Of a DNA stretch of 64,000 bases, positions 48,665-62,749 are shown in pieces (position 1 is the first letter of the stretch; each line of letters starts with the position of its first letter). Source of the stretch: Clostridiales bacterium (GTDB lineage Bacteria; Bacillota; Clostridia; Saccharofermentanales; Saccharofermentanaceae). Position numbers and translations under genes: made by a program. Where the stretch lies: positions 15,052 to 79,051 of the forward strand of contig JAGCXQ010000062.1 in assembly GCA_017961235.1 (NCBI GenBank), in the 5' to 3' direction. The notes beneath the pieces were generated by a model. The model was not told the DNA's origin, did not search any database, and worked only from the letters and a program-made list of their open reading frames with translations.

Positions 48665-50470
48665 TTATCCGCCGGCAAGTGCTTTATCTGCCTGTTCCTG
48701 AGTAATATGTCCTTCAGATAGCAGCTTATTAATGGCATTCGTCGTATATTCGATGTCATGGGTAGAGTTCTGTGCCTTGCTGTATTTCATAGCAAGCGTA
48801 TAGTATTCCAGTGCTTTTGCATAATCTATGGAGACACCGTGCCCATAGTGATATGACCATCCGACATTGGCTGTAGACTGAGGATCCTGAAGTTCTGCAC
48901 CCTTCAGCCACCATTCAAGAGCTCTTGCATCATCTTTCGTTCCGCCCTCCCCTTCGGAGAACATATAGCCGATCGCGCCATATGCGTTCGGCACTTTTTC
49001 TCTGGCCGCCACCAAATAGCAGTCCATGGTTTTGGTAAAGCTCTGTTCTATTCCATAGCCAAGTTCATAGAATCTGCCCATCTTATACATAGCATTTGCG
49101 TTTCCATACTCTGCCGCCTTCTGGAAGCACTTGAACGCCGTATCATATGTTTTCTGGACGCCTTGTCCATATTCGAACAACAAACCGATCTGATAATATG
49201 CATCGCCATCTCCTCTTGCTGCTGCCTCATTGAATAATGTTCTGGCTTTGACAAAGTCCTGTGGGACTCCATCGCCTGTTTTATAATTCATCGCAAGATT
49301 GTAATAGCCGGACGGATATCCCATTTCCGACGCCTTTGTAAGCCATTCGGCCGACTTTGCATCATCCTTGGAAGTATCTGAAGTTGCTCTATCATATACA
49401 AGTCCTATACCATTTGTCGAAAATGCCTTCTCATACCAATACGGGCTCTCGAGCGCCTTCTGATATAATTCTATAGCTTTATTTCCACTCGGGGCGGAAA
49501 GACCCGGGGCTGTACCTAACCGATACATGGACGCCACTCTGTTATACCCTTGCAGGCATCCGCCCTCTGCTGCCTGCTGGTAAAGAGAGAAAGCCTTATC
49601 TTTATCCATATCGACGCCGGAGCCAAACTCATAGAGCGTCCCTTGTCCGACCAGACCATAGAGCGATCCTGCATCAGAAGCTTTCTGGTAATAGGAAAGC
49701 GCCGTCTTATAGTGGTCTTCTTTTAGGGAATAATGTTGCGCCATATAGCCAAGCTTATACCATCCCTTGCCGCATCCGGCATCTGCAGCTTCCTGATAGA
49801 GTTTGGAAGCCTCGGATAAGTTAAGCTCTGTTCCTGCCCGCGCAAATAGATAATCATCTCCGCGTTCGACCTTCGCTTCCGCTTCGGTGATCGCCCAAAG
49901 CGAAGAAACATTTGCCGAAGGAGATATAAAATACCAGTATTTATCGGTATCTTCCACGAGGATGACACCATTTCTCTCCACACCGGACAGCGATATATCG
50001 GAGAATACGATCGACAGATCTTCCCCTGTTGCTTTCCATTCAGTGATCGTGCGGTTTCCTTCTTTGTCGTCTTCCCATCCCGCTGTTCCATCTTCATTCA
50101 GGATCAATCGGAAATTTCTTCCTTCCTGAATGATCGGGAAATTATTGACCGATCCGTTCTCCGGATGCGCTTCGGCCTTCGTCTTGATGGCAAAGCCTTC
50201 ATATGTCCCGGCGATCCGGACTCGATCGGGATCAAGCGGCTCTGTCGTTTCCGATGTCTCGGGTTCTGTCGTCGTCTCTTTTTCCGTGGCTTCAGTCTCG
50301 GTCTCTTCTGTTATTTCCGAAGTATCCTCTGTCTTCGAGGCATTCTTTTTCTTCTTTTCACGGGTAGTTTCCGCCGAGGATTTACTGCAGCCGGACAGGA
50401 GCATGCCAGCAATAACAAATAGAGATATAAGAATCAGAAAGATATTCTTTCTTTGGATCTTCGTAGTCAT
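48665..50470 (-). CDS. Lipoprotein with N-terminal beta domain and multiple Sel1-like (TPR-family) repeats
   Basis: Lipobox LLSGC. About 9 repeats of the type A..WY.KAAE.G...A...LG.MY..G.GV..D...A. RBS GGAGGAGGGAA. Confidence 0.8.
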   Translation of the reverse strand: MTTKIQRKNIFLILISLFVIAGMLLSGCSKSSAETTREKKKKNASKTEDTSEITEETETEATEKETTTEPETSETTEPLDPDRVRIAGTYEGFAIKTKAEAHPENGSVNNFPIIQEGRNFRLILNEDGTAGWEDDKEGNRTITEWKATGEDLSIVFSDISLSGVERNGVILVEDTDKYWYFISPSANVSSLWAITEAEAKVERGDDYLFARAGTELNLSEASKLYQEAADAGCGKGWYKLGYMAQHYSLKEDHYKTALSYYQKASDAGSLYGLVGQGTLYEFGSGVDMDKDKAFSLYQQAAEGGCLQGYNRVASMYRLGTAPGLSAPSGNKAIELYQKALESPYWYEKAFSTNGIGLVYDRATSDTSKDDAKSAEWLTKASEMGYPSGYYNLAMNYKTGDGVPQDFVKARTLFNEAAARGDGDAYYQIGLLFEYGQGVQKTYDTAFKCFQKAAEYGNANAMYKMGRFYELGYGIEQSFTKTMDCYLVAAREKVPNAYGAIGYMFSEGEGGTKDDARALEWWLKGAELQDPQSTANVGWSYHYGHGVSIDYAKALEYYTLAMKYSKAQNSTHDIEYTTNAINKLLSEGHITQEQADKALAGG

Positions 50471-53036: not shown

Positions 53037-53531
53037 TCAGATATTTGTATCTTCTACACCAGTCGGATCCCCGTGATGTTTTGTCGGCTTCTTTGTCGGA
53101 TCTGTTGTTTTGCCGGGATCCTTTGTCTCTTTTCCTCCGGGAGCTTTCGTTTCCCTGATATCGTCTTTGCCTTTGGAAGATCCATCAGAAAGAGTATTCG
53201 CCGGATCTCCACCGATATCTATATCCAGCTCGTCAGGAGCGCCCGGATCACTTCCCGGTGCCTTGGTAGTTACGGAAGTGGATCCCGTTCCGCTTTCGGA
53301 AAGATCTGACGCCGGATCTTCTGTCCCGGAATTCTTCGATGTATCAGAAGAGTCTTCAGCGGAAGATATTGCTGAATCGTGAGAGGACATTTCACTTTCT
53401 GCTGTGATCTTTGTGTCAGAAGCATTATCCGAAGAGGAGGATGCCCCCTTTTTCTTCTTTCCTTTCCAGCAGGCAGATAACAGCATCGTGCCGGCAACTA
53501 AAAGAATCAGAACTCTTTTCCTTCTGATCAT
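53037..53531 (-). CDS. Lipid-anchored, intrinsically disordered Ser/Thr/Asp/Gly/Lys-rich protein
   Basis: Signal peptide with lipobox LLSAC. The rest is low complexity. The C-terminus DPGKTTDPTKKPTKHHGDPTGVEDTNI is homologous to the C-terminus of 56663-57196. ATGA overlap with the thioesterase gene. Confidence 0.6.
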   Translation of the reverse strand: MIRRKRVLILLVAGTMLLSACWKGKKKKGASSSSDNASDTKITAESEMSSHDSAISSAEDSSDTSKNSGTEDPASDLSESGTGSTSVTTKAPGSDPGAPDELDIDIGGDPANTLSDGSSKGKDDIRETKAPGGKETKDPGKTTDPTKKPTKHHGDPTGVEDTNI

Positions 53532-53959
53532 GTCTGTTCTCCTTTATCCATCAGAGATATAAGTGTCTCATAAAATGCGGGGCATTCCTTTTCCAGACGG
53601 ATCGGGCGGCCTTCCAGGTTCAGGAAGCAGTGCTCGGATCTCGCGTCGCAGACAAGTTTGCCATCGGCATTTTTCATCTCATATCCGATCGTCAGCCGGA
53701 CACCCTTACAGGCAAGGATCTTCACTTCGATCGTGATCTCTTCCGGAAATGTCGTTGTCCCTTTGTAGTGCACATCGATCGAGACGACCGGAGAGGCAAT
53801 TCCTGTCTCCTCCAGTTTATCGAAATCCCATCCGATCTTGGAAAGATAGTCGACTCTGGCTTCTTCCATCCAGCGCACATAGTTCGAGTGATGCGTGATA
53901 CTCATTTTATCCGTTTCATAGTACTGGACCTTGTGCTTATATGGTTCGATATTCTGCAT
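53528..53959 (-). CDS. Acyl-CoA thioesterase (4HBT/YbgC-like hotdog fold)
   Basis: 143 aa. HKVQYYETDKMSITHHSNYVRWMEEARVDYL is the typical 4HBT N-terminus with the catalytic Asp. Confidence 0.85.
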   Translation of the reverse strand: MQNIEPYKHKVQYYETDKMSITHHSNYVRWMEEARVDYLSKIGWDFDKLEETGIASPVVSIDVHYKGTTTFPEEITIEVKILACKGVRLTIGYEMKNADGKLVCDARSEHCFLNLEGRPIRLEKECPAFYETLISLMDKGEQT

Positions 53960-53996
53960 CTTCAGTTCTCCGGTTTCTCTTTCGATTTCTTTCGTA

Positions 53997-54005
53997 AGTA
54001 TAGCA
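53997..54005 (-). promoter_or_regulatory. Extended -10 element (TGcTATACT) for the thioesterase operon
   Basis: Minus strand reads TGCTATACT about 38 nt upstream of ATG 53959. Confidence 0.45.
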
Positions 54006-54033
54006 AAAAGCCCCTCTTTACAAAAGCCCGCAT

Positions 54034-54071
54034 ATAAAAAAGACCGGATGCCAGTTTCCCGGCACCCGGTC
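54034..54071 (-). terminator. Rho-independent terminator after small ORF P1
   Basis: Minus strand reads GACCGGGUGCC..GGCAUCCGGUC followed by UUUUUU. Confidence 0.75.
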
Positions 54072-54091
54072 TAGATCTTTAGAAAACAGAA

Positions 54092-54184
54092 TTACACATC
54101 CACTTCATCGCCAAAGCTTGTGATGATCACATCTTCCGCATCAAAGGTTACAATTACCAGCTTTAATTCTTCATAGGTTTCCAT
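54092..54184 (-). CDS. Small acidic ORF P1 (30 aa), not in ORF track
   Basis: Translation METYEELKLVIVTFDAEDVIITSFGDEVDV. AGGAG lies 11 nt upstream. It sits 42 nt after the stop of the large gene and just before a terminator, and shares a core with P2 (57231-57353). Confidence 0.45.
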   Translation of the reverse strand: METYEELKLVIVTFDAEDVIITSFGDEVDV

Positions 54185-54226
54185 ATATCATATTTCTCCT
54201 TATCTTTCCTTGTTTACCGATGTGTC

Positions 54227-56527
54227 TTACTGTTTATTAAAGTAATTATCTGCAGCTTCGCCGAAACAGTACAGAGCTTTGCCGAGATATCTACCGTGTT
54301 CAGACTCCGCAAACTGGGATGCCAGCAGAGCATATGACATCGAGCTGGCCTTTACCGTAAAGCTTTCATCCGTGTTATTTCTCGTCACGGTAAAAGTATG
54401 TGGTACGACCAGATCTTGGGCAATGATATTCTTCACATAGAGTGCATACTTACCCTTACCGATCTTGACCGCCTCTGCCGGCTGACCATCTACAGTAAAG
54501 CTGTAATCACTGATCGGATGTGTATCATCGATCTTAAACGTCAGTCTCAGAGTATTGATGTACTGGAAATCTACATTCAGAGAGGCACCAAGACATCCCT
54601 CGACCTGATTCTCGGTTTTTACTACACCGTATTTATCAATTTTATCCTGCGAATACTCAAAATTATAAATTCCCGGATACCTTCCGAATTCAGTACCGTC
54701 ATCATAGACAAAGAACCTGGTAACAGCCTCGCAGTAACCCTGTAAGTATGCTGCCAGAAGCGTCATCTCATCATAGGGATCAGAGGGATCATAAGCAGAG
54801 ATAACATTTCGGATATACATCGCGACAGAATACCAGCACTCATTATCATCATATGCTGAAGTACCATTCGGGTGCACCAGCAGAACCGGTTCATCATTCT
54901 CATCCACCACTTTGACCGCAATATACTTCCTGTAGTTATAAAGATCTACAGGAACACGGAAATAGAGATTATCCCCCTCCACTGCATCCGGAGAGGAGAT
55001 CGGTGTTTCTTTTATGATCTTACCTGTGTCTGTATCCGTAAATACGACCTTCACATTCTGGCTATTCTCTTTGAGATAATCAGAGAATTCGATGCGGAAC
55101 TGCAACTCGATACCTGCTCCGAATACTACATCACCTGCACAGATCGTCGCTTTGCCGACAGGCTCCCATGCAGCAATTATATAAACTCTACCATCATGTA
55201 CCGGCTCAGAAAAATCGAATCGGCCGATCCTTTCTTTCGTATGGGTATCCGGATCGTAACTATACTCATCCCATCCCAGGAAGATATAGCCTTCCCGAAC
55301 CGGATCTGCAGGACGTGCGATCCTATCTCCCGTAGGAATCAGCAGCTCGGCATCTGTACTACTGAAACCATCACTGATCAGGACATACGTCAACAGCGCT
55401 TTGCAGTAATCACAGTGAGAATCTCCGTCCTCATCTTTATGTTCTTCACACGGAACGAGTTTCAGCCACTTATAATTCACGATATCATCATAATCCGTGC
55501 AAAGAGTCACACCGGTGGCACTTGCTCCGTAACCGTTCGTCACGTATGCTCTGTGCTTCTCCGGCAAACCATATCCGCACGAATATGTCGCTTGGTTGTC
55601 GTCCATATCCGCCTGCATCAATGCTTTGGCATCAACAGAATCCTGGCCTGCCTGCGCGAATACCGTTCCGCCACTGATATCGATCAACACTGTATTAAGG
55701 TGTCTTGATTCGGAAAGCATTCCGCTTCCGATACCGGGACCTCCATCTCCACCGGTAGCAGTAACCTCCCCTCCGAGGATCTGAACCATATTGCAAAGGC
55801 CGCCTCTTCCGCCGCCGATTCCTGCAGCGTAGCTGGCTCCGGTAGCCGTAACTGTTCCTCCGGAGATTCTTACTCCACATGCATTACTGCCATTACCTCC
55901 GCCGATTCCGGCTCCGCCGGCATCTCTAGAATAGGAACTACCAGAAACAGTACCACCTTTAATAATGACAGCATCCGGCTGTTGAGAAGGATCTACATTG
56001 GCACCTGTGCCGATACCTGCACCACCGTTTCCTTTGGCTGTAATGGAGTCTCCGCCACAAATAGTAATAGCACCATTTGCTTGTCCTGCGTCTCCGCCAA
56101 TACCTGCATTTCCCTGACCGACATCATCTATGATCAGGATGATGCCTATCGTGTTAAAAATATCCGAGCCCCTGTATATCGTCAAAGAATTACCTTTATT
56201 GACCGATATACCCTTAAGTGGCTGCAGCGGCATAGTATTTGTCAGAACAAGTTTTACGTCGCCTTCCACCACGATACGGTCGGATATCTTCAGATATTCA
56301 GTATTATCTGCCACATACCATCCGCGGGTAGCACCGGTATCCGTCAATTTCGTAGATTCTTCGGTAATCACTTCGCATGTTCTGGTCTCCGCGGTACCAG
56401 ATCTGCCTTCATGGAAGAAATTAACATTTTTCGTTTGAGATGAAGGATCAGCAAAAACCGAAGCCGGTATGATCCCGATCACTAAAGCAATGCACACAAG
56501 AAGTGCAATGAAACTCTTTTTCCTCAT
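54227..56527 (-). CDS. Secreted Gly-rich beta-helix repeat protein 1 (with Listeria-Bacteroides-type repeat and conserved C-terminal domain)
   Basis: ATG 56527 follows TAGGAGG. Signal peptide ..IGIIPASVFA/D. Repeats NAGIGGDAG, GGAGIGTG, GGAGIGGGNG, AAGIGGGRGG and GGPGIGSG interleaved with GGTVTA-type strands. CEEHKDEDGDSHCDYCKA knuckle. REGYIFLGWDEY (Flg_new-like). No LPXTG or SLH anchor. Confidence 0.8.
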   Translation of the reverse strand: MRKKSFIALLVCIALVIGIIPASVFADPSSQTKNVNFFHEGRSGTAETRTCEVITEESTKLTDTGATRGWYVADNTEYLKISDRIVVEGDVKLVLTNTMPLQPLKGISVNKGNSLTIYRGSDIFNTIGIILIIDDVGQGNAGIGGDAGQANGAITICGGDSITAKGNGGAGIGTGANVDPSQQPDAVIIKGGTVSGSSYSRDAGGAGIGGGNGSNACGVRISGGTVTATGASYAAGIGGGRGGLCNMVQILGGEVTATGGDGGPGIGSGMLSESRHLNTVLIDISGGTVFAQAGQDSVDAKALMQADMDDNQATYSCGYGLPEKHRAYVTNGYGASATGVTLCTDYDDIVNYKWLKLVPCEEHKDEDGDSHCDYCKALLTYVLISDGFSSTDAELLIPTGDRIARPADPVREGYIFLGWDEYSYDPDTHTKERIGRFDFSEPVHDGRVYIIAAWEPVGKATICAGDVVFGAGIELQFRIEFSDYLKENSQNVKVVFTDTDTGKIIKETPISSPDAVEGDNLYFRVPVDLYNYRKYIAVKVVDENDEPVLLVHPNGTSAYDDNECWYSVAMYIRNVISAYDPSDPYDEMTLLAAYLQGYCEAVTRFFVYDDGTEFGRYPGIYNFEYSQDKIDKYGVVKTENQVEGCLGASLNVDFQYINTLRLTFKIDDTHPISDYSFTVDGQPAEAVKIGKGKYALYVKNIIAQDLVVPHTFTVTRNNTDESFTVKASSMSYALLASQFAESEHGRYLGKALYCFGEAADNYFNKQ

Positions 56528-56603
56528 CTTCAGAAACCTCCTAAACCCCCAAGGATACAATTATTCATAATGCTATTTTAATGTATCCTCAGATCAAAGT
56601 CCA
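56528..56603 (-). promoter_or_regulatory. Conserved upstream module of beta-helix gene 1 (TGGACTTT-N19-ATAGCATTATGA, then TTAGGAGGTTTC RBS)
   Basis: Both motifs, the 19-nt spacing and the distance to the ATG (37 vs 38 nt) match the module at 59561-59637. Confidence 0.45.
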
Positions 56604-56641
56604 CAAATCTGCAAAATCTTTTTACTTTCGTAACCGGGCAG

Positions 56642-56678
56642 CAAAAAAAAAGATACAGGCTGTCAGAAACCTGTATCT
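56642..56678 (-). terminator. Rho-independent terminator ending module 2
   Basis: AGATACAGG (56651-56659) pairs with CCTGTATCT (56670-56678), followed by a run of 9 U on the minus strand. The stop codon of 56663-57196 lies in the loop. Confidence 0.8.
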
Positions 56679-57196
56679 TCTTCTCCTGCCATATCACCGG
56701 TATAAAGAGTCTGTTTTTTCGTTTCGTCCGGATGGTTCTCTGATGGTTTCGTCGGATCCGTTTTTCCCGGGGTCTTATCTGTACTCGAACCGGGGCCCGG
56801 ACGGCTTTCTTTTCCGGGCTCTGTGTTCGACGGCTGCCCATCATCAATCACATATTCTCCCGGCTCCGTTTCTTTGTCAGCGGACGTTTTTCCATCTGTA
56901 GAGGTCCCTTCCTGCTGCTGATCCGAAACAGAAATGTCTTGGGATACATCCGTCTCCATAGAGGTTTCAGTTGAAGGAAAAACTGTACCGCTTTGTTGTC
57001 CGGCATCATTGTTCTGTCCTTCAATCTTCTTCGGATCATCATTCAAGTTAAGCTCAGCTGTACCCCCGGAAATGACTTGTGATGTCTGAACCACATCTGT
57101 GTTCTTTTTTCCTGCTTTTCTTATCCACAAATAGCATAGAACCGAAACCAGGATAAGCAGACATACCGAAACTGCGATAATGACTTTTTTCTTCAT
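56663..57196 (-). CDS. Single-pass membrane-anchored, intrinsically disordered protein
   Basis: ATG 57196 follows GGAGAA. MKKKVIIAVSVCLLILVSVLCYLWIRKAGKK, then a low-complexity S/T/D/G/P/Q region. The C-terminus TPGKTDPTKPSENHPDETKKQTLYTGDMAGEEDTGF parallels 53037-53531. Confidence 0.6.
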   Translation of the reverse strand: MKKKVIIAVSVCLLILVSVLCYLWIRKAGKKNTDVVQTSQVISGGTAELNLNDDPKKIEGQNNDAGQQSGTVFPSTETSMETDVSQDISVSDQQQEGTSTDGKTSADKETEPGEYVIDDGQPSNTEPGKESRPGPGSSTDKTPGKTDPTKPSENHPDETKKQTLYTGDMAGEEDTGF

Positions 57197-57230
57197 CCGC
57201 TTCTCCATATTAGATATCTGCTAGCATCTG

Positions 57231-57353
57231 TCAGATACCATGTTCGTTTCCGCCATTGCCATGACCAGGATCATCATCATACGAGTCCGTAATGATATCC
57301 ATATTCTCAAAAATGATCAATTCAATTTTTAAAGGCTGATATTCGTTTTTCAT
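57231..57353 (-). CDS. Small acidic ORF P2 (40 aa), not in ORF track
   Basis: Translation MKNEYQPLKIELIIFENMDIITDSYDDDPGHGNGGNEHGI. Its ATG overlaps the TGA of the upstream large gene (CAATGAAA), which implies translational coupling. The core is shared with P1. Confidence 0.5.
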   Translation of the reverse strand: MKNEYQPLKIELIIFENMDIITDSYDDDPGHGNGGNEHGI

Positions 57354-59560
57354 TGACTTGCTCCATCTCTCTTTTCAAAATATGCAATTGCATTTTTATT
57401 GTAGTAGTACATGCCTTTACCAAGCGCCATGTAGTAATCATCCCCGGTCTTTATGGATGTATATCCATAAGAAAGGCCGCTGGCTTTGATCGTGTATTCC
57501 TCTCCGCCTTTCTTCGCTATAGTGAAATTATACACATACGACAGATTCACGGCAGAAATATTACCTACTTCGATTGCATAGCCTCCTGTTGTGGTTTTGA
57601 TCGCTCTGACTTTTTGTCCGTCAAGTTTGAATTCATAATCACCCGGATTCACACCCTCTTTAAAATAGAAAGTAACGCGCAGTGTATGAACATCTTCAAA
57701 ATACATACGAAGAGTGATCCTGCTTATATCCTCCGGACGCGTTCCTTCAAATACAGGAGCATATGGATCCAGATCCGAATCGCCGATTCCTTCTCCCACG
57801 GTCAACTGAGCATACTGCGAATATTCATAACCATATATCACATCATGTGCCGTCATTGAGTAGAGGCTAAATGCGTGAGCAAGATTCTTCATTTCGATCG
57901 TCTTATATGTAAAATTATAGACGTTGCCTGCATATCTTGCCGGACTATATTCGAAACCGGAATTCGTATAATCCACATCATTCCCGGAGTGTAAAGATAC
58001 TTTATTGCCCTGTCCATCGTAAACATTCATGACAGTGACTATGGCAGCATCTGTGATATTAAACGGATAGAGGATCTGAGTATTGTAGGGATATACCGGT
58101 AGAGAACCTTCTCCTACAGTGGTCCCGTCTTTAATATATACCTTTAAGAGTTCAACTCCGGTATTCTTCGATACAAATGATACATAAGCTCCTTCATCAT
58201 CGAGCAGTCTCTTCGAGAAAGAGAACGTGTAACGAAGAGAAAGTTTTCCCTCGAAAATCACTGTCGCCGATCGCAGGATCGCATCTGCACCATATCCGCA
58301 TTCTTTACATACATTCTTTCCGGATTCGTAGGAATGATTTTCCCAGACAAATTCAGTACGGCATTCCGGACAAGATCTAAGATGCTGCTGGGAAGTGCAC
58401 TCAAAAGTGGAATTCGTATGCTTGCATACATTCATCGAGACATACGGTTGATCAAGACATTCCCTTACGTCTTTTGTAAAATGCTGCCCGACAATACCGT
58501 TGTCTTCTTCGTGGACCTGGATCGAAACACCCGGATCGATTGAAATTGAACTATCTGAGATCTTAGATGAATCATCCGAAGCACTGCATATCAGCGAGCT
58601 ACCCAACACGGATACTGCTGTGATTTGAGCTCCACGGATCGATATACGGCATTTTGAGTAATCCGGATTCGGGCATCCATATCCATTTCCAATAGCAGCA
58701 CCTTTCGCTTCAGCTTCATTATTACCGGGAGGAGCAATTGCTGTGACAGAACCTCCGGAAATGGAAATAACACCACACTGTCCGCCGGCACCGCCACCGA
58801 TAGCTGCAGCATCCAATCCGGACGGATATGCACCAATAGTATTACAATCGATCATGTATATATCCGGGGAATCCGCATGGAAGCCACCACCGATACTTGC
58901 GGCACTATAGCCACCGATACATGTAAAACCTGAACGACAGAGAATAATAGAACCTGCTCCCGATGCAGAAAGATATGGATCTGATTCACTTACTGCTGCT
59001 TCATTTCCACAGCCGCCGGTTCCAATCGCTGGAGCGCCATATCCACCATAAACAGTTCCGGAAACACCAACAATCGTAATAGGACCATTCACTTCACCCT
59101 GATTGCCGCCGATTCCCGCACACTGGTTCGGAATCGGATTCCATGCACCAAAACTCGGAGTACTTGAACAATTATTGAATATCGAGGAATATACTTTCAA
59201 GGAACTTGTACTCGGAACATAAAAACCTCCAGTAGCAGCTAGAGTAGATGCCCCATATATTTCAGTATCATCGGAAAACGAATTGACAAACTCATCCAGA
59301 ATGATCGTGACATCACCTTTGATAGTCATTCGCTGGTTGTAATGAATATAACCACGAGCAACATAGGTTCCTTCGGTAAACTCTGTTTCCTTACCCGTAA
59401 GGAACGTATAATCGGTTGTATGCTTCGTAGAACCATTTTCATTTACGTAGGAAATTTCCGGCATCGCCACATCAGCCATAACTGACATAGGAATGATACC
59501 GCACATCAGCGCAACACTGATCAGCAATGCGCAAATCTTTCTGAAGCTTTTCTTTTGCAT
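57350..59560 (-). CDS. Secreted Gly-rich beta-helix repeat protein 2 (paralog of 54227-56527)
   Basis: ATG 59560 follows TTAGGAGGG. The track's longer start would run through the fprA terminator. Signal peptide ..CGIIPMSVMA/D. CAGIGGNQG, APAIGTGG, AASIGGGF, AAAIGGGAGG and GAAIGNGYG repeats. Cys knuckles CPECRTEF..CKECG. The C-terminal domain is homologous to protein 1. Confidence 0.8.
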   Translation of the reverse strand: MQKKSFRKICALLISVALMCGIIPMSVMADVAMPEISYVNENGSTKHTTDYTFLTGKETEFTEGTYVARGYIHYNQRMTIKGDVTIILDEFVNSFSDDTEIYGASTLAATGGFYVPSTSSLKVYSSIFNNCSSTPSFGAWNPIPNQCAGIGGNQGEVNGPITIVGVSGTVYGGYGAPAIGTGGCGNEAAVSESDPYLSASGAGSIILCRSGFTCIGGYSAASIGGGFHADSPDIYMIDCNTIGAYPSGLDAAAIGGGAGGQCGVISISGGSVTAIAPPGNNEAEAKGAAIGNGYGCPNPDYSKCRISIRGAQITAVSVLGSSLICSASDDSSKISDSSISIDPGVSIQVHEEDNGIVGQHFTKDVRECLDQPYVSMNVCKHTNSTFECTSQQHLRSCPECRTEFVWENHSYESGKNVCKECGYGADAILRSATVIFEGKLSLRYTFSFSKRLLDDEGAYVSFVSKNTGVELLKVYIKDGTTVGEGSLPVYPYNTQILYPFNITDAAIVTVMNVYDGQGNKVSLHSGNDVDYTNSGFEYSPARYAGNVYNFTYKTIEMKNLAHAFSLYSMTAHDVIYGYEYSQYAQLTVGEGIGDSDLDPYAPVFEGTRPEDISRITLRMYFEDVHTLRVTFYFKEGVNPGDYEFKLDGQKVRAIKTTTGGYAIEVGNISAVNLSYVYNFTIAKKGGEEYTIKASGLSYGYTSIKTGDDYYMALGKGMYYYNKNAIAYFEKRDGASQ

Positions 59561-59637
59561 GATGAGAAACCCTCCTAATAACCCAATACCAAAACTTCTC
59601 ATAATGCTATTGTATTTCATATATAGGGTAAAGTCCA
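59561..59637 (-). promoter_or_regulatory. Conserved upstream module of beta-helix gene 2 (TGGACTTT-N19-ATAGCATTATGA, then TTAGGAGGGTTTC RBS)
   Basis: Complement of 59630-59637 reads TGGACTTT and complement of 59600-59611 reads ATAGCATTATGA. The spacing is identical to the copy at 56528-56603. Confidence 0.45.
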
Positions 59638-59728: not shown

Positions 59729-61522
59729 TCACCCGATCGGCTCGAAGTCGGCAGCGCCGTGCTTACAGAGCGGGCATACGATGTCATCCGGGAGTTCATC
59801 TCCTTCATAGACATATCCGCAGACCTTGCAGACATAGCCCTTCTTCCCTTCCGTCTCCGGCTTCGGCTTGACGTTCTTCTGGTAGTAAGTGTATGTCATG
59901 GTCTCCTTATCGCTTAAGACACGAGCCTCCGTCACCGAGCAGATGAACATGCCGTGGGTGTCAAGATCAACATAATCTTCGACCTTGAGGGACATGAAGG
60001 AGTTGATATACTTCGGCAGGAACACCAGCCCGTTATCCGCGCGGAGGATATTCTCGCAGTCCGCAAACTTATCGACATTTCTTCCGCTCTGGAAACCGAA
60101 GTTCTCGAACACCTTAAACGGAGCTTCGACAGACAGGCAGTTTACATTCATGACACCGGTCTGCTTAATGACATGATGCGAGTAGTTCTGCTTGTTGATC
60201 GTAACCGCAATACGGTTCGGTGTATTCGTCACCTGAGTAACGGTATTTACGATAAGGCCGTTGTCTTTCTTGCCGTCATTGGAGGTAACGACATAAAGGC
60301 CATAACCGATGTTAAAGAGAGCAGTCAGATCGTTCTTATTCGCAGTATCTTCCTTCTGCGCGAGATAGTCCTGGCAGAGTTCTTTTGCCAGAGCATCGAC
60401 CTGGGCCTTCGACTCATCATTTAATGCCGACATGATCTTGACGTTATTCTCTGTGTAGGTGATGTTCTTGCTCTTTTCGAGCATCGCCTTCATGGTGCGG
60501 ATCGCCTGCGGCGCCCAGGAACCGTTCTCGATCATGGCGACGGTCTTGTTCTGGAACTGGCGCTCGGTCAGGTGATGGATGAATTCTCTCATGAACGGGA
60601 ATACATCCGCGTTATAGGTCGTGGTCGCAAGTACGATACGTCCATAACGGAAAGCATCCTCGACGCACTCGGCCATGTCTTCTCTTGCCAGGTCATTCAC
60701 AACGACCTTCGGGCATCCGTTCTCCTTGAGCTTATTGGCCAGAAGCTCGACTGCTGCCTTGGTGTGGCCATAGACGGATGTGTAGAAGATCGCGATGCCG
60801 TCTGTCTCCACACCATAAGAAGACCATGTGTCATAGAGCTTGAGATACGGGGAAAGATCTCCGGTCAGGACAGGTCCGTGCAGCGGGCAGATCGTCTTGA
60901 TCTCAAGTCCTGCCGCCTTCTTCAGAACAGTCTGTACCTGCGCGCCGTATTTTCCGACGATGCCGATATAGTAGCGGCGGGCTTCACATGCCCAGTCCTC
61001 TTCGACATCGAGCGCGCCGAATTTACCAAATCCGTCCGCACTGAAAAGCACTTTATCAAAAGTATCGTACGTCATGAGCACTTCCGGCCAGTGTACCATC
61101 GGTGCACCGACAAACTTCAGGACGTGCTTGCCGAGCGGAAGCTCATCGCCCTCGCCAACAACGATGCGGCGGTCTTCGAACTCCGTACCGAAGAAATTCT
61201 TCATCATCGTGAATGCCTTCTGGGAAGACACGATCTCCGCATTCGGATAGTTCTTCATGAAGTTCACGATATTCGCGGAGTGATCCGGCTCCATATGCTG
61301 GACCACGAGGTAATCCGGAGCCTTACCGGCCAGTGCTTTTTCCAGATTATCGAGCCACTCATGAGTGAAATTCTTATCAACGGTATCCATAACTGCGACC
61401 TTATAATCCGAGATCACATACGAGTTATACGCCATACCGTTCGGCACCACATACTGGCCCTCGAAAAGGTCGATATTATGGTCATTTACGCCTACATACT
61501 TAATGTCATTACTGATAAACAT
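59729..61522 (-). CDS. Multidomain flavodiiron protein: metallo-beta-lactamase-like diiron + flavodoxin + flavin-reductase-like + rubredoxin
   Basis: H-x-E-x-D-H (QHMEPDHS) diiron motif. Flavodoxin-like IAIFYTSVYGHTK. Flavin_Reduct-like segment LYVVTSNDGKKDNGLIVNTVTQV. C-terminal [20 protein letters not shown] rubredoxin. Confidence 0.9.
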   Translation of the reverse strand: MFISNDIKYVGVNDHNIDLFEGQYVVPNGMAYNSYVISDYKVAVMDTVDKNFTHEWLDNLEKALAGKAPDYLVVQHMEPDHSANIVNFMKNYPNAEIVSSQKAFTMMKNFFGTEFEDRRIVVGEGDELPLGKHVLKFVGAPMVHWPEVLMTYDTFDKVLFSADGFGKFGALDVEEDWACEARRYYIGIVGKYGAQVQTVLKKAAGLEIKTICPLHGPVLTGDLSPYLKLYDTWSSYGVETDGIAIFYTSVYGHTKAAVELLANKLKENGCPKVVVNDLAREDMAECVEDAFRYGRIVLATTTYNADVFPFMREFIHHLTERQFQNKTVAMIENGSWAPQAIRTMKAMLEKSKNITYTENNVKIMSALNDESKAQVDALAKELCQDYLAQKEDTANKNDLTALFNIGYGLYVVTSNDGKKDNGLIVNTVTQVTNTPNRIAVTINKQNYSHHVIKQTGVMNVNCLSVEAPFKVFENFGFQSGRNVDKFADCENILRADNGLVFLPKYINSFMSLKVEDYVDLDTHGMFICSVTEARVLSDKETMTYTYYQKNVKPKPETEGKKGYVCKVCGYVYEGDELPDDIVCPLCKHGAADFEPIG

Positions 61523-61544
61523 AAGTGCTTCCCTTTCTTAACTA

Positions 61545-61580
61545 AAGAACGGGCGTCCGCATCTCTTCTGCGGACGCCCC
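61545..61580 (-). terminator. Hairpin between rubrerythrin and flavodiiron genes (partial terminator or attenuator)
   Basis: GGGCGTCCGCA (61551-61561) pairs with TGCGGACGCCC (69-79 of the same 61500 block), followed by GUUCUUUAGUU. The U-tract is weak. Confidence 0.5.
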
Positions 61581-61625
61581 TCATGCTTCTTTCTAGGTAG
61601 CGCCCTCTCCGGCGCCTTCGTAGAA

Positions 61626-62213
61626 TCAACCGAAGTATCTGTCGAGAAGGCCCTTCAGTGCTTTTCCGTGACGAGCCTCATCTCTTGCCATCTCATGAAC
61701 AGTGTCATGGATCGCATCGAGATTATTCTTCTTCGCGCAGGTTGCGAGCTCTGTCTTACCTGCTGTTGCGCCGAACTCGCAGTCCACACGCCACTTGAGG
61801 TTCTCCTTGGTGGATGCCTTCATGTTTGCTTCGAGATCAGATCCGAGAAGTTCAGCAAACTTTGCCGCATGCTCTGCCTCTTCAAATGCAGCCTTCTCCC
61901 AGTAAAGACCGATCTCCGGATAGCCCTCACGGTAAGCGATACGAGCCATGCAGAGATACATGCCGACCTCGGAACACTCACCGGTGAAGTTTGCCTTCAG
62001 CTGGTCGAAGATGTACTTCTTATCCTCCTCAGAAATATCAGGATTATTCTTCACAGTCTCTGCATATACGCCGAACTTATGCTCAGCAGCGAGACCCATG
62101 TCTTCTTCCATCTTCTTAAATGCAGCCTTCTTTGCCTTACATACCGGGCACTCATCCGGTGCATCAGGTCCTTCATAAACGTAACCACATACAGAACATA
62201 CAAACTTTGTCAT
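61626..62213 (-). CDS. rbr: Reverse rubrerythrin (N-terminal rubredoxin domain + ferritin-like diiron domain)
   Basis: ATG 62213 follows [30 protein letters not shown], then E-x-x-H pairs ([21 protein letters not shown]). Confidence 0.9.
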
Positions 62214-62261
62214 ACTCAATTTCTCCTTGTCTGATTTGATTTGAAAAGCACTCCCCGCGTC

Positions 62262-62660
62262 TTATGCGCCGCGCTCTTCATCTTCTTTACTGCACTCCGG
62301 GCACAGTCCGTCGAACTGGAGCGAATATCCTAAGATCGTATAGCCGGAAGTATCAGAAAGCATATCGGCGAGGTCCTTGACCGGCATCACGACATCCGCG
62401 ACGCGCCCGCATTCACTGCAGTGCACGTGATAGTGCGGGAAGGTCTGGTGGTCGAAGTGATCCGCGCCGTTGTTGATACGGATGCGGAGAGCTTCGCCGG
62501 AATCGGCAAGCTTATTCAGAATACGATAGACAGTCGCACGCGAGATCGACGGATAGGTACTCTGCACTTCCGCAACAACTTCATCGGCGGTAGGGTGATT
62601 GCACATACGGATCAAAGTCTCGTGAACGATTCTTTTCTGAAGCGTATTTCTTTCCTGCAT
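62262..62660 (-). CDS. Fur-family metalloregulator, PerR-like
   Basis: ATG 62660 follows AGGAG. Winged helix QKRIVHETLIRMCNHPTADEV..ISRATVYRILNKL. HFDHQ..HYHVHCSECG...CPEC are Fur/PerR metal sites. The gene heads the rubrerythrin/FDP operon. Confidence 0.85.
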   Translation of the reverse strand: MQERNTLQKRIVHETLIRMCNHPTADEVVAEVQSTYPSISRATVYRILNKLADSGEALRIRINNGADHFDHQTFPHYHVHCSECGRVADVVMPVKDLADMLSDTSGYTILGYSLQFDGLCPECSKEDEERGA

Positions 62661-62749
62661 CCTGAAAACTCCTGACATAACAGCATTTTAGATCTTAGAA
62701 CAGTCACCCTGGACCTCTGAAGATGTGTCCAAGTGCTTTTCTACTATTG

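Follow-up and report, generated by a model that had tools for sequence, protein, structure and literature searches.

A surface protein, mini-peptide and tether gene module of Clostridia

Several described systems bear on the question of how large secreted proteins of Firmicutes are held on the cell, or are associated with small peptides. Secreted proteins may be anchored through a separately encoded, cell-bound partner, as in the cohesin-dockerin anchoring scaffoldins such as ScaE-XDoc of Ruminococcus flavefaciens, whereas the tapA-sipW-tasA operon of Bacillus subtilis combines a secreted structural protein, a membrane-associated anchoring or assembly protein and a dedicated SipW-type S26 peptidase. 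PF18889 (Beta_helix_3) surface proteins of Firmicutes have been listed among the fibrillar-adhesin-like proteins (PMC8286594). Among peptide systems, Firmicute lasso-peptide clusters with tailoring kinase and nucleotidyltransferase, of the paeninodin and pseudomycoidin type, use a set of kinase, PqqD, nucleotidyltransferase and ABC genes (rumen survey PMC7533575). In this study, we describe two adjacent copies of an unannotated gene set, comprising a large secreted protein with a predicted beta-helix, a 30-40-residue very acidic peptide and a membrane-tethered disordered protein, in a stretch of 64,000 nucleotides from a Clostridiales bacterium (contig JAGCXQ010000062.1; hereafter the window). 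They belong to a very large gene module of Clostridia, of which we found no description in the libraries and papers searched, and which probably, although this remains a best guess, governs how giant surface proteins are held on, or released from, the cell. The features of the two modules, both on the minus strand, are the following.

59609..59637 (-): promoter-like site upstream of B (TGGACT, 17 nt, TACAAT), followed by the conserved 5' leader AATAGCATTATGA...TTAGGAGGGTTTCT
57350..59560 (-): large secreted protein B (736 aa), with Sec signal peptide, PF18889-like beta-helix, Cys/His knuckle and C-terminal domain (CTD)
57353..58282 (-): CTD of B (last ~310 residues)
57231..57353 (-): small acidic ORF b (40 aa, MKNEYQPLKIELIIFENMDIITDSYDDDPGHGNGGNEHGI), whose ATG overlaps the stop codon of B (ATGA)
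56663..57208 (-): anchored disordered protein b (181 aa), with N-terminal transmembrane segment, disordered linker and C-terminal tail ..KKQTLYTGDMAGEEDTGF
56643..56677 (-): intrinsic-terminator-like hairpin (GATACAGG-N10-CCTGTATC followed by T9) that ends the B operon, read directly from the sequence, since the terminator scan missed it because the loop exceeds 8 nt
56575..56603 (-): promoter-like site upstream of A (TGGACT, 17 nt, TAAAAT), followed by AATAGCATTATGA and TTTAGGAGGTTTCTGAAGATG
54227..56527 (-): large secreted protein A (766 aa), with signal peptide, PF18889 beta-helix (about residues 30-300), Cys/His knuckle (360-375), sub-threshold Flg_new and CTD
54230..55153 (-): CTD of A (residues 459-766), predicted as two Ig-like sandwiches, a helical insert and a C-terminal helical hairpin ending ..LGKALYCFGEAADNYF
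54092..54184 (-): small acidic ORF a (30 aa, METYEELKLVIVTFDAEDVIITSFGDEVDV), 42 nt after the stop of A, with an AAGGAG Shine-Dalgarno sequence
54041..54072 (-): strong intrinsic terminator (14-bp stem followed by a T-run) that ends the A/small-a transcript
53528..53959 (-): YbgC/FadM-type 4HBT thioesterase, a conserved neighbour whose stop overlaps the start of anchor a, probably not a module component
53037..53531 (-): anchored disordered protein a (164 aa), with lipoprotein signal (lipobox LLSAC), disordered linker and C-terminal tail ..HHGDPTGVEDTNI

An earlier note, made from the sequence alone, had described this region as a tandem duplication of an uncharacterised module, and its observation is confirmed, as all the features that it listed are present at the stated coordinates. 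The large proteins A and B align end to end (BLASTP, 25% identity, E=4e-29), their signal peptides are alike (..GIIPASVFAD and ..GIIPMSVMAD) and their CTDs are homologous, the CTD of B being matched by the iterated CTD profile (positions 1-279, E=1e-37). The Gly-rich AGIGGG repeats match PF18889, with 28.5 bits for A against a cut-off of 27 and 14.9 bits, below threshold, for B, and AlphaFold2 models this region of A as a beta-helix. The C-x2-H...C-x2-C knuckle (C360, H363, C372, C375) is invariant across nine family members. The tiny ORFs share a core, and they are the only two of 1,735 six-frame segments in the window that match the family profile (E=3e-12 for a and 6e-12 for b). The anchored proteins share a weak overall match (E=8e-6) and a C-terminal motif, which is 100% (anchor a) or about 78% (anchor b) conserved in orthologues whose linkers are only 37-55% identical; in the case of anchor a, the last 11 residues are identical in an orthologue that is 55% identical overall. 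Both large genes also have the upstream motif pair, each promoter-like site being followed by AATAGCATTATGA and TTAGGAGGTTTCT-N5-ATG, and Pfam finds no LPXTG, SLH, dockerin or other wall-anchor domain. Gene callers on identical metagenome contigs call the same 736-aa product for B, and ORF b is called as a gene on 18 contigs.

The interpretation given in that note is only partly supported. The two modules are indeed paralogous and uncharacterised, with no meaningful matches in Pfam, NCBIfam, PADLOC, PHROGs or PDB beyond the PF18889 repeat, the small ORFs and anchored proteins are syntenic with such genes in other genomes, and the codon composition is shifted; none of the conditions that the note had named in advance as refuting it (a characterised family, loss of synteny, no compositional shift) occurred. 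Total GC dips to 0.43-0.47 against 0.487 for the window, and the shift is clearer in GC3, which is 0.443 for A, 0.377 for B, 0.436 for anchor b and 0.415 for anchor a, against 0.573 +/- 0.07 for 51 window genes. The interposed thioesterase (TIGR00051, 75.2 bits against a cut-off of 68.7; PF13279) is normal at 0.594 and is present in every slot layout; it is a conserved neighbour with host-like GC3, probably not a component of the module.

The arrangement is, however, not a recent tandem duplication. A and B are only 25% identical, while the flanking FprA is 96-99% identical between relatives, and these close relatives carry, in the same slot, A only (relatives L007 and L012), B plus a third type, C (L009), or C only (L015, L016 and L019). 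A fourth type, D, lies at another site, upstream of the Fur gene, in L017. The promoter-like region and leader upstream of B are conserved in L012 and L009 whichever cassette follows. Each of the four types has its own peptide and tether, and gene order is not fixed, type C running tether, small ORF, large gene. These would be old paralogous cassettes exchanged at a hotspot behind a conserved promoter.

Nor is the beta-helix the defining conserved part, which is instead the ~290-residue CTD plus the small ORF. The CTD has no Pfam match, was found in 5,212 protein clusters in an exhaustive search, and is always at the extreme C-terminus, behind very different passengers (beta-helix, BspA-type LRR plus Flg_new, and others). 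AlphaFold2 predicts the CTD of A as a separate, well-folded, non-enzymatic double Ig-like module (pLDDT 87.7, pTM 0.83), with no specific relative in the PDB. The small ORF is tightly coupled to CTD genes. In control loci, PF18889 proteins that carry the CTD have the small ORF (2/2), whereas PF18889 proteins with SLH or without the CTD do not (0/2). Of 71 small ORFs with enough upstream sequence, 54 have a large ORF ending within 200 nt, and 68 neighbouring proteins carry the CTD. These frequencies are rough, as the metagenome set was selected with a motif pattern. In addition, a second class of large proteins without the CTD is also followed by the small ORF, and therefore the partner of the peptide may not be the CTD itself.

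The small ORFs belong to a large unannotated family, which could not be recognized in the earlier note, with a conserved 24-residue N-terminus (MKEKYEELELEVIEFEAEDVITTS), a hypervariable tail and a net charge of about -9. It might be argued that the neighbours are coincidental, that is, that the large proteins are ordinary variable adhesins, the tiny ORFs annotation noise or a nucleotide-level element, and the disordered lipoproteins unrelated. In favour of this view, all products are annotated only as hypothetical protein, no family models exist, and similarity between the window's own pairs is weak. Nevertheless, the trio recurs in four sequence types with permuted order. A degenerate DNA pattern for the core returned at least 120 stretches in the metagenome scan, where its information content (about 39 bits) predicts only a few chance hits, and it hits the window twice, with no hit in 100 shuffles of the window or in viral contigs. 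Of 103 small ORFs, 93 have a Shine-Dalgarno-like motif, against 17% at random positions, and 97 start with ATG; orthologues carry in-frame indels (those of ORF b being 73-90% identical), all of which indicates translation, and the ATGA overlap with B suggests translational coupling. Rfam finds nothing, and the CTD-specific controls behaved as predicted, so we consider coincidence very improbable and already close to refuted.

Where a tether gene is adjacent, its C-terminal tail co-varies with the tail of the peptide: cognate pairs score a mean of 19.75 against 14.0 for non-cognate pairs (permutation p about 1e-4, n=16), one example being GDPYEGEDDPIP against YDPNEGELDPIP. Tail similarity within the window's own pairs is modest, with a score of 15 for type b, ranked 5th of 16. 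By our heuristic, only about 9-16 of 72 small-ORF loci with downstream room have an adjacent tether, which is therefore not a universal partner of the CTD.

In 13 of 33 related loci with at least 3 kb of downstream flank (about 40%), the peptide gene is followed on the same strand by genes for an HprK-like P-loop protein, a PqqD-type peptide-recognition protein (PF05402, 39 bits against a cut-off of 23.4), an S26-like peptidase, an ABC exporter (PF00664 plus PF00005) and a PF14907 nucleotidyltransferase, the HprK-like and S26-like assignments being only sub-threshold. None of these lies in the window. This linkage raises the possibility, which we consider less likely, that the small ORFs are precursors of a new linear RiPP family, whose leader would be recognized by PqqD, and which would be tailored by the HprK-like kinase and the nucleotidyltransferase, cut by the S26-like peptidase and exported by the ABC transporter as a signalling or antagonistic peptide. 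The large CTD protein and the tether would then be co-regulated cargo, receptor or self-protection (a tethered decoy of the peptide), rather than an anchoring pair. The architecture of a conserved leader-like N-terminus plus a hypervariable tail is typical of RiPP precursors, and a few members have Cys-rich tails. However, besides the absence of maturation and export genes from the window, no lasso cyclase or B2 protease appeared in the census and the leader profile shows no significant similarity to lasso leaders. This reading explains neither why the gene sits 0-60 nt behind CTD genes in about three quarters of loci nor why the tail matches an extracellular tether tail.

All together, these results allow us to propose, tentatively, a model for the roles of the three components. 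The analysis itself establishes the anatomy of each module, namely a Sec-secreted large protein with a variable passenger and a conserved CTD, a signal-less acidic peptide with a family-wide N-terminal segment and a locus-specific tail, and a tether (transmembrane segment or lipid anchor) that is intrinsically disordered with a conserved tail; it likewise establishes the recurrence of the CTD plus small ORF pair in many Clostridial metagenome loci, the co-variation of adjacent tails and the downstream operon in related loci. What follows, including any binding or export, is inferred from sequence and predicted structure alone. In this view, the CTD is a surface-retention module: the large proteins, lacking a wall anchor of their own, would be held on the cell by non-covalent docking of the CTD onto the short C-terminal tail (..HHGDPTGVEDTNI in tether a, ..LYTGDMAGEEDTGF in tether b), presented by the tether at the end of a ~150-residue flexible stalk long enough to cross the wall. 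The small peptide would be a leader-bearing free copy of the same tail (peptide tails FGDEVDV and YDDDPGHGNGGNEHGI), its conserved N-terminus serving as a handle for PqqD-type maturation and export machinery. As the peptide has no signal peptide and this machinery would here have to be encoded outside the window, or be absent, export is unsupported for this genome. The N-terminus of the peptide is also far more conserved than the CTDs and must bind something other than the CTD. The free tail would occupy the same CTD site as the tether, and could act outside the cell as a competitor that regulates release or attachment, or inside the cell as a decoy that stops CTD and tether from pairing before export. 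The cassette swapping, together with the fast evolution of the locus, would reflect diversifying pressure, as expected for exposed surface structures.

An alternative is that the peptide is a dedicated cytoplasmic chaperone or anti-folding factor, binding the nascent CTD or the binding groove of the tether tail, so that the large protein is kept export-competent or premature complex formation is prevented, and that it would never be exported in genomes like this one. The lack of a signal peptide, the ATGA overlap and short gaps, which suggest translational coupling and co-expression in step with the large gene, the absence of an exporter from the window and the resemblance of the tail to the tether tail, as a decoy would show, are in agreement with it. 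On the other hand, Sec substrates normally need no dedicated chaperone of this kind, the strongly conserved N-terminus contrasts with CTDs that are only 25-30% identical, linkage to an ABC exporter and a peptidase in many loci points to export, and small ORFs also follow non-CTD large proteins. We thus regard this alternative as unlikely.

With respect to the described systems, the lasso-peptide clusters resemble the present module in their short precursor, with a conserved N-terminal segment and a variable acidic C-terminal part, and in the PqqD (B1-like), HprK-like P-loop, PF14907 and ABC exporter genes that directly follow the peptide gene in related loci. They differ in that no lasso cyclase or transglutaminase-type B2 protease was seen, an S26-like peptidase being present instead, in the leader, and in the lack of these enzymes in the window; moreover, no lasso system is known to us that is coupled to giant surface proteins or to a tether with a matching tail. 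In the case of the PF18889 surface proteins, the N-terminal passenger of A, and more weakly of B, is this predicted beta-helix, for which more than 3,000 homologues were found, but most of them end in SLH, Big_2, dockerin or LRR/Flg_new modules, and in the loci compared only those ending in the CTD have the small ORF. The tapA-sipW-tasA operon is similar in concept, and the S26-like protein of related loci has its best match to TIGR02228, the family that includes SipW-type enzymes, although Pfam and NCBIfam searches found no TasA or TapA homology, the peptidase is absent from the window and that operon has no acidic peptide. As in anchoring through scaffoldins, the secreted protein has no wall anchor of its own, a conserved C-terminal module sits behind variable passengers, a neighbouring gene encodes a proposed cell-bound partner, and family members are found in the same habitat, one named relative being a buffalo-rumen MAG. 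There are, however, no cohesin or dockerin domains here, the proposed partner is a disordered stalk with a short terminal motif rather than a folded domain, and the third component, the peptide, has no counterpart in that system.

All genes of the module lie on the minus strand. Read 5' to 3' on that strand, the features are as follows.

59637-59609 (-), a sigma-70-like promoter
57350-59560 (-), large protein B (736 aa)
57231-57353 (-), small ORF b (40 aa), whose ATG overlaps the TGA of B as ATGA
56663-57208 (-), anchored protein b (181 aa)
56677-56643 (-), a hairpin plus T9 terminator
56603-56575 (-), a second, similar promoter
54227-56527 (-), large protein A (766 aa)
54092-54184 (-), small ORF a (30 aa), with an AAGGAG Shine-Dalgarno sequence
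54072-54041 (-), a strong terminator
53528-53959 (-), a thioesterase whose stop overlaps the start of lipoprotein a
53037-53531 (-), lipoprotein a (164 aa; also anchor a)

On one side the module is flanked by an oxidative-stress gene cluster (59729-62678, minus strand), consisting of Fur, rubrerythrin and a 597-aa flavodiiron protein (FprA) fused to flavin-reductase and rubredoxin domains, which is 96-100% conserved among relatives and forms the fixed left border of the variable slot. AraC(+) and GH16(-) lie on the other side. Near the module, at 48665-50470 (-), there is a 601-aa lipoprotein with an acidic, Thr/Glu-rich linker and a repeat-rich C-terminal part that is Sel1-like by eye; its GC3 is also low (0.478), making it another compositionally atypical surface protein.

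Every element of the observation made in the earlier note, which had described two paralogous secreted proteins, each followed by a tiny acidic ORF and an anchored low-complexity protein, was confirmed. A and B align over their full lengths at 25% identity (E=4e-29), and nine family members share an invariant signal-peptide end, AGIGG-type repeats and a C-x2-H...C-x2-C knuckle. The only Pfam family found at threshold is PF18889 (Beta_helix_3), for which A scores 28.5 bits against a gathering threshold of 27; B scores 14.9 bits, below threshold, but aligns with A through this region, which AlphaFold2 models in A as a beta-helix. The Listeria-Bacteroides repeat (Flg_new, PF09479) is not reached, since A scores 24.1 bits against a cut-off of 27 over a partial match at residues 397-421 and B has no match. 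As the note had proposed, no known Gram-positive surface anchor is present: Pfam and NCBIfam find no LPXTG/sortase, SLH, CWB2, dockerin, LysM or choline-binding match in A or B, and the C-termini end in a helix (..NYFNKQ and ..YFEKRDGASQ) with no LPXTG plus transmembrane segment. The anchored proteins match each other weakly (E=8e-6), and the small ORFs share 8 of 24 residues. Anchor a is a bacterial lipoprotein, as it carries a lipobox fitting [LVI][ASTVI][GAS]C at the end of its N-terminal signal peptide (MIRRKRVLILLVAGTMLLSAC, read directly from the translation), whereas anchor b has an uncleaved transmembrane segment instead. Besides the tail, the disordered tethers share a second small conserved acidic island, PDELDIDIGG in anchor a (mid-region, 53250-53290), EPGEYVIDDG in anchor b (mid-region, 56830-56870) and PEEMDIGEEG in the tether of a third cassette type, C (in the related locus L009, 10857-11402).

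Both large genes have the same upstream arrangement, namely TGGACT, 17 nt, TA[AC]AAT, then AATAGCATTATGA and then TTAGGAGGTTTCT. The compositional shift suspected in the note is seen in GC3, which is 0.38-0.44 for A, B and both anchors against 0.573 +/- 0.07 for 51 window genes. The interposed gene encodes a YbgC/FadM 4HBT acyl-CoA thioesterase (TIGR00051, 75.2 bits against a cut-off of 68.7; PF13279, 64.5 bits) with a host-like GC3 of 0.594, and we treat it as a neighbour rather than as a part of the module.

The interpretation given in the note, a tandem duplication of an uncharacterised module, was supported only in part, as a recent tandem duplication is rejected both on divergence and on the alternative layouts of the slot. 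Identical or near-identical metagenome contigs carry the same layout as the window, with both tiny ORFs called as genes. Relatives whose FprA is 96-99% identical, in contrast, carry different contents in the same slot. In loci L007 and L012-14 only A, small ORF, thioesterase and lipoprotein are found; in L009 and L010 the thioesterase is followed by B, small ORF and tether, and then by lipoprotein, small ORF and the third large type, C; and in L015 (a buffalo-rumen Clostridiales MAG), L016 ('Mageeibacillus sp. UBA1193', Oscillospiraceae) and L019 the thioesterase is followed by lipoprotein, small ORF and C only. In L019 (contig ODAI014188457.1), FprA is 98.5% and GH16 92.5% identical to the proteins of the window, and cassettes are therefore replaced between very close relatives. 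A fourth type, D, with a 939-aa large protein, a 40-aa small ORF and a 177-aa lipoprotein, lies at another site in locus L017. Each type has its own peptide and tether, the lipoproteins of types C and D also have lipoboxes (LLTSC and MLGGC), and gene order is permuted in type C. The named genomes belong to a single clade of Oscillospiraceae-like MAGs, and a scan of genome contigs with a narrow alignment returned only 2 species representatives, both from the same clade, so that taxonomic breadth is poorly sampled.

Divergence within the slot is steep compared with the flanks.

Table. Protein identity between the window and locus L012
Protein; identity
FprA; 98.8%
A; 89.7%
small-a; 74%
anchor a; 55%

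Between the window and L009, B is 67% identical and anchor b 37%. Yet the tether tails are kept, as the last 11 residues of anchor a are identical, as are 14 of the last 18 of anchor b, and the promoter region is conserved whichever cassette follows it. A hint that some cassettes travel on mobile elements comes from locus L138 (805-2982 and 11938-13338), where a protein (P0025) carrying the C-terminal domain (CTD) described below and its small ORF lie between a serine recombinase gene and a phage-type integrase gene.

The small ORF belongs to a very large family. A word-indexed protein search with the small-ORF alignment found only 7 close relatives, owing to limits of the index, and it was a degenerate DNA pattern for the core (Y-x2-L-x-h-[EV]-h-[IV]-x-F-[ED]-x2-D-[IV]-[IV]-x2-S) that revealed the family. 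This pattern carries about 39 bits and gave 0 hits in 100 shuffles of the window, but at least 120 stretches in the metagenome collection. Nearly all hits are ORFs of 27-60 aa (median 35) with a median net charge of -9, an N-terminal consensus MKEKYEELELEVIEFEAEDVITTS and short, hypervariable tails. Of 103, 97 start with ATG and 93 have a Shine-Dalgarno-like tetramer upstream, against 17% of random positions, and orthologues of the window's peptides differ by conservative substitutions and in-frame indels. Some family members carry Cys-rich tails on the same conserved N-terminus, for example GGCDVDAAPCLCNRDCPGNCAVG, in loci L047 (581-710), L061 (635-925, two tandem copies) and L107 (4850-4952; coordinates are offsets on the strand that carries the ORF), suggesting that other peptide chemistries share the leader. 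In locus L074 (about 2150-2260) a truncated copy of the small ORF (MEKYEALEIEVITLPLTPKT) lies just upstream of the intact one, which suggests duplication and decay of the small ORF within loci. No Pfam or NCBIfam model matches the family, source annotations say only 'hypothetical protein', and Rfam found no RNA element in the window. Searches of the literature for motif strings, for PF18889 and for HprK/PqqD/nucleotidyltransferase combinations found no description of this module.

The partner of the small ORF is probably a C-terminal domain. In 54 of 71 cases with at least 900 nt of upstream sequence, a large ORF ends within 200 nt upstream of the small ORF. A profile of the last ~300 residues of A, B, C and D, iterated twice, matches 68 of these neighbours (59 upstream, 9 downstream), always over its full length (~280 positions) and always at the extreme C-terminus, behind passengers that differ widely (beta-helix, BspA-type LRR plus Flg_new, and others with no Pfam match). 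The CTD itself has no Pfam match. Whereas a word-indexed search with the CTD profile returned only 4 hits, an exhaustive profile search finds the domain in 5,212 representative clusters at E<=1e-3 and in 2,757 at E<=1e-10, again always C-terminal, in proteins of roughly 170 to 4,800 aa, the shortest of which are probably fragments. AlphaFold2 gives a confident model of the CTD (pLDDT 87.7, pTM 0.83), with two predicted Ig-like sandwiches, a helical insert and a terminal helical hairpin carrying the conserved LGKALYxYxxAAxxYF motif. Foldseek searches with the full-length and CTD-only models gave only generic tandem Ig/FN3 matches with TM-scores of 0.2-0.3, and a PDB sequence search found nothing.

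As controls, we compared PF18889 homologues of A: those with the CTD (P0025 and P0113) have a family-positive small ORF 14-35 nt downstream, while those without it (P0060, with SLH, and P0026) have none. Within the window, only A and B carry the CTD and only the two tiny ORFs match the peptide profile. A second, smaller class of very large secreted proteins, seen in metagenome loci L037, L046, L055, L112, L113 and L124, has no CTD, ends in ..DTWYVRAYLVYTDxxGNxHTIYGDMVSxTF and is also followed by the small acidic ORF; several of these are followed by a ~290-aa protein with a signal peptide and a C-terminal transmembrane segment.

In a subset of loci, a disordered protein of 110-290 aa with a transmembrane segment or lipobox follows the small ORF; by a crude heuristic filter this is the case in 9 of 72 loci with downstream room, and by eye in more. 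Its extreme C-terminus resembles the tail of the adjacent peptide.

Table. Peptide and tether tails in four metagenome loci
Locus; peptide tail; tether tail
L090; GDPYEGEDDPIP; YDPNEGELDPIP
L067; AIQLPLAP; NGDAIQLPVAP
L120; NDPTFPEIPIGG; NGDILLPEIP
L137; IIGPFLPAQNP; PVVLPFLPAD

Over 16 non-redundant pairs, cognate local-alignment scores exceed non-cognate ones (mean 19.75 against 14.0; permutation p about 1e-4), and six cognates rank first. The window's own pairs follow the pattern only loosely, with FGDEVDV against GDPTGVEDTNI for type a and ..HGNGGNEHGI against ..TGDMAGEEDTGF for type b.

In 13 of 33 loci with at least 3 kb downstream, a set of genes follows on the same strand, often overlapping. 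It comprises a ~245-aa P-loop protein with weak ScmC and HprK-related matches, PqqD (PF05402, 39 bits against 23.4), a ~150-aa S26-like peptidase (TIGR02228, E=2e-9, sub-threshold), an ABC exporter (PF00664 plus PF00005), a PF14907 nucleotidyltransferase and sometimes a GNAT acetyltransferase. These frequencies, like the others reported here for the small-ORF loci, come from short metagenome contigs selected by a motif and are rough. None of these genes is found in the 64-kb window. Judged by sequence and gene neighbourhood alone, the family as a whole combines a conserved leader and a variable core with genomic linkage to an RRE protein, a modifying enzyme, a peptidase and an exporter, as would be expected of RiPP precursors in the broad sense, while the two members in the window have no such genes within 64 kb. 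An autonomous RiPP whose link to the surface protein is regulatory or protective is one of the main rival readings, although we consider it unlikely.

We hold with high confidence that the module is real, that the peptides are translated, that the pairing of CTD and peptide is specific and that the locus is a hotspot. The mechanism, on the other hand, including any binding, modification or export of the peptide, is inferred. The CTD behaves like a sorting or retention module, as one conserved C-terminal domain sits behind many passengers that lack any known anchor; the tether is a membrane-fixed flexible stalk with a conserved terminal motif; and the peptide carries a matching motif behind a handle that, in other genomes, sits next to a peptide-recognition protein, a peptidase and an exporter. 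The simplest model uniting these facts is tail docking, in which the tethered tail would hold the protein and the free tail would compete with it or act as a chaperone. We propose this model only tentatively. A purely cytoplasmic chaperone or decoy is the other main rival, and appears less likely than either docking or the RiPP reading.

A broader reading, which we regard as unlikely although it is compatible with the present data, is that of a previously unrecognised surface-display system of Clostridia. Thousands of giant secreted proteins would share a ~290-residue C-terminal 'address reader' domain, docking on a short, strain-specific C-terminal peptide 'address' displayed by a membrane-tethered disordered stalk. 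The cell would also make a leader-bearing free copy of the same address, matured and exported by PqqD, HprK-like, S26-peptidase and ABC machinery, and this copy would control attachment, release or kin-specific adhesion of the surface proteins. Such a system would link RiPP-type peptide biosynthesis directly to cell-surface architecture.

Large extracellular proteins of gut and rumen Clostridia (Oscillospiraceae and relatives) mediate adhesion and polymer capture, and for most of those lacking SLH, LPXTG or dockerin modules the means of staying on the cell has not been established. Here, a single unannotated C-terminal domain is found on more than 5,000 protein clusters and is genetically locked to an equally unannotated family of tiny acidic peptides, which are often linked to tail-matched tethers and to RiPP-like maturation and export genes. 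If the docking model holds, it would define a new anchoring principle, in which a folded domain reads a short peptide at the end of a disordered stalk, and would give peptide natural-product machinery a new role. If it fails, the small-ORF family is still a large, easily testable set of candidate secreted or regulatory peptides, and the locus a clear case of cassette exchange of surface structures between near-identical strains. Two new family models, one for the CTD and one for the small peptide, would name thousands of hypothetical proteins.

With respect to known systems, the idea of an anti-phage defence system was rejected, as was the idea of a phage tail fibre with its chaperone: comparison with PADLOC and PHROGs gave only two chance-level low-complexity hits (E about 0.004), and the small-ORF pattern has 0 hits in 2.9 million viral contigs. 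The genes that follow the small ORF elsewhere are the accessory set of Firmicute lasso clusters (PMC7533575), and a PqqD-type RRE (B1) lies next to the precursor in 12 of the 33 related loci with at least 3 kb downstream, though not in the window. However, membership among lasso precursors was rejected. Neither an Asn-synthetase-like cyclase (C) nor a transglutaminase-like leader protease (B2) appears among the recurrent same-strand neighbour families of about 120 loci or in the window. The lasso leader motif (YxxPxLx3Gx5Tx), followed by a core starting with Gly and with Asp or Glu at position 7-9, is not found either: the family profile has no significant match to published lasso precursors (best conditional E=0.043 over 12 residues), and the tails in the window start with F or Y, not G. 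Finally, the toxin/immunity idea was rejected. Polymorphic toxin/immunity pairs of the CdiA, Rhs and LXG types place a variable C-terminal toxin domain on a conserved large protein, followed by a cognate immunity gene. No toxin domain is present here, and the reverse arrangement holds, as the C-terminal domain is the conserved part, the passenger varies, and the downstream ORF has a family-wide conserved N-terminus.
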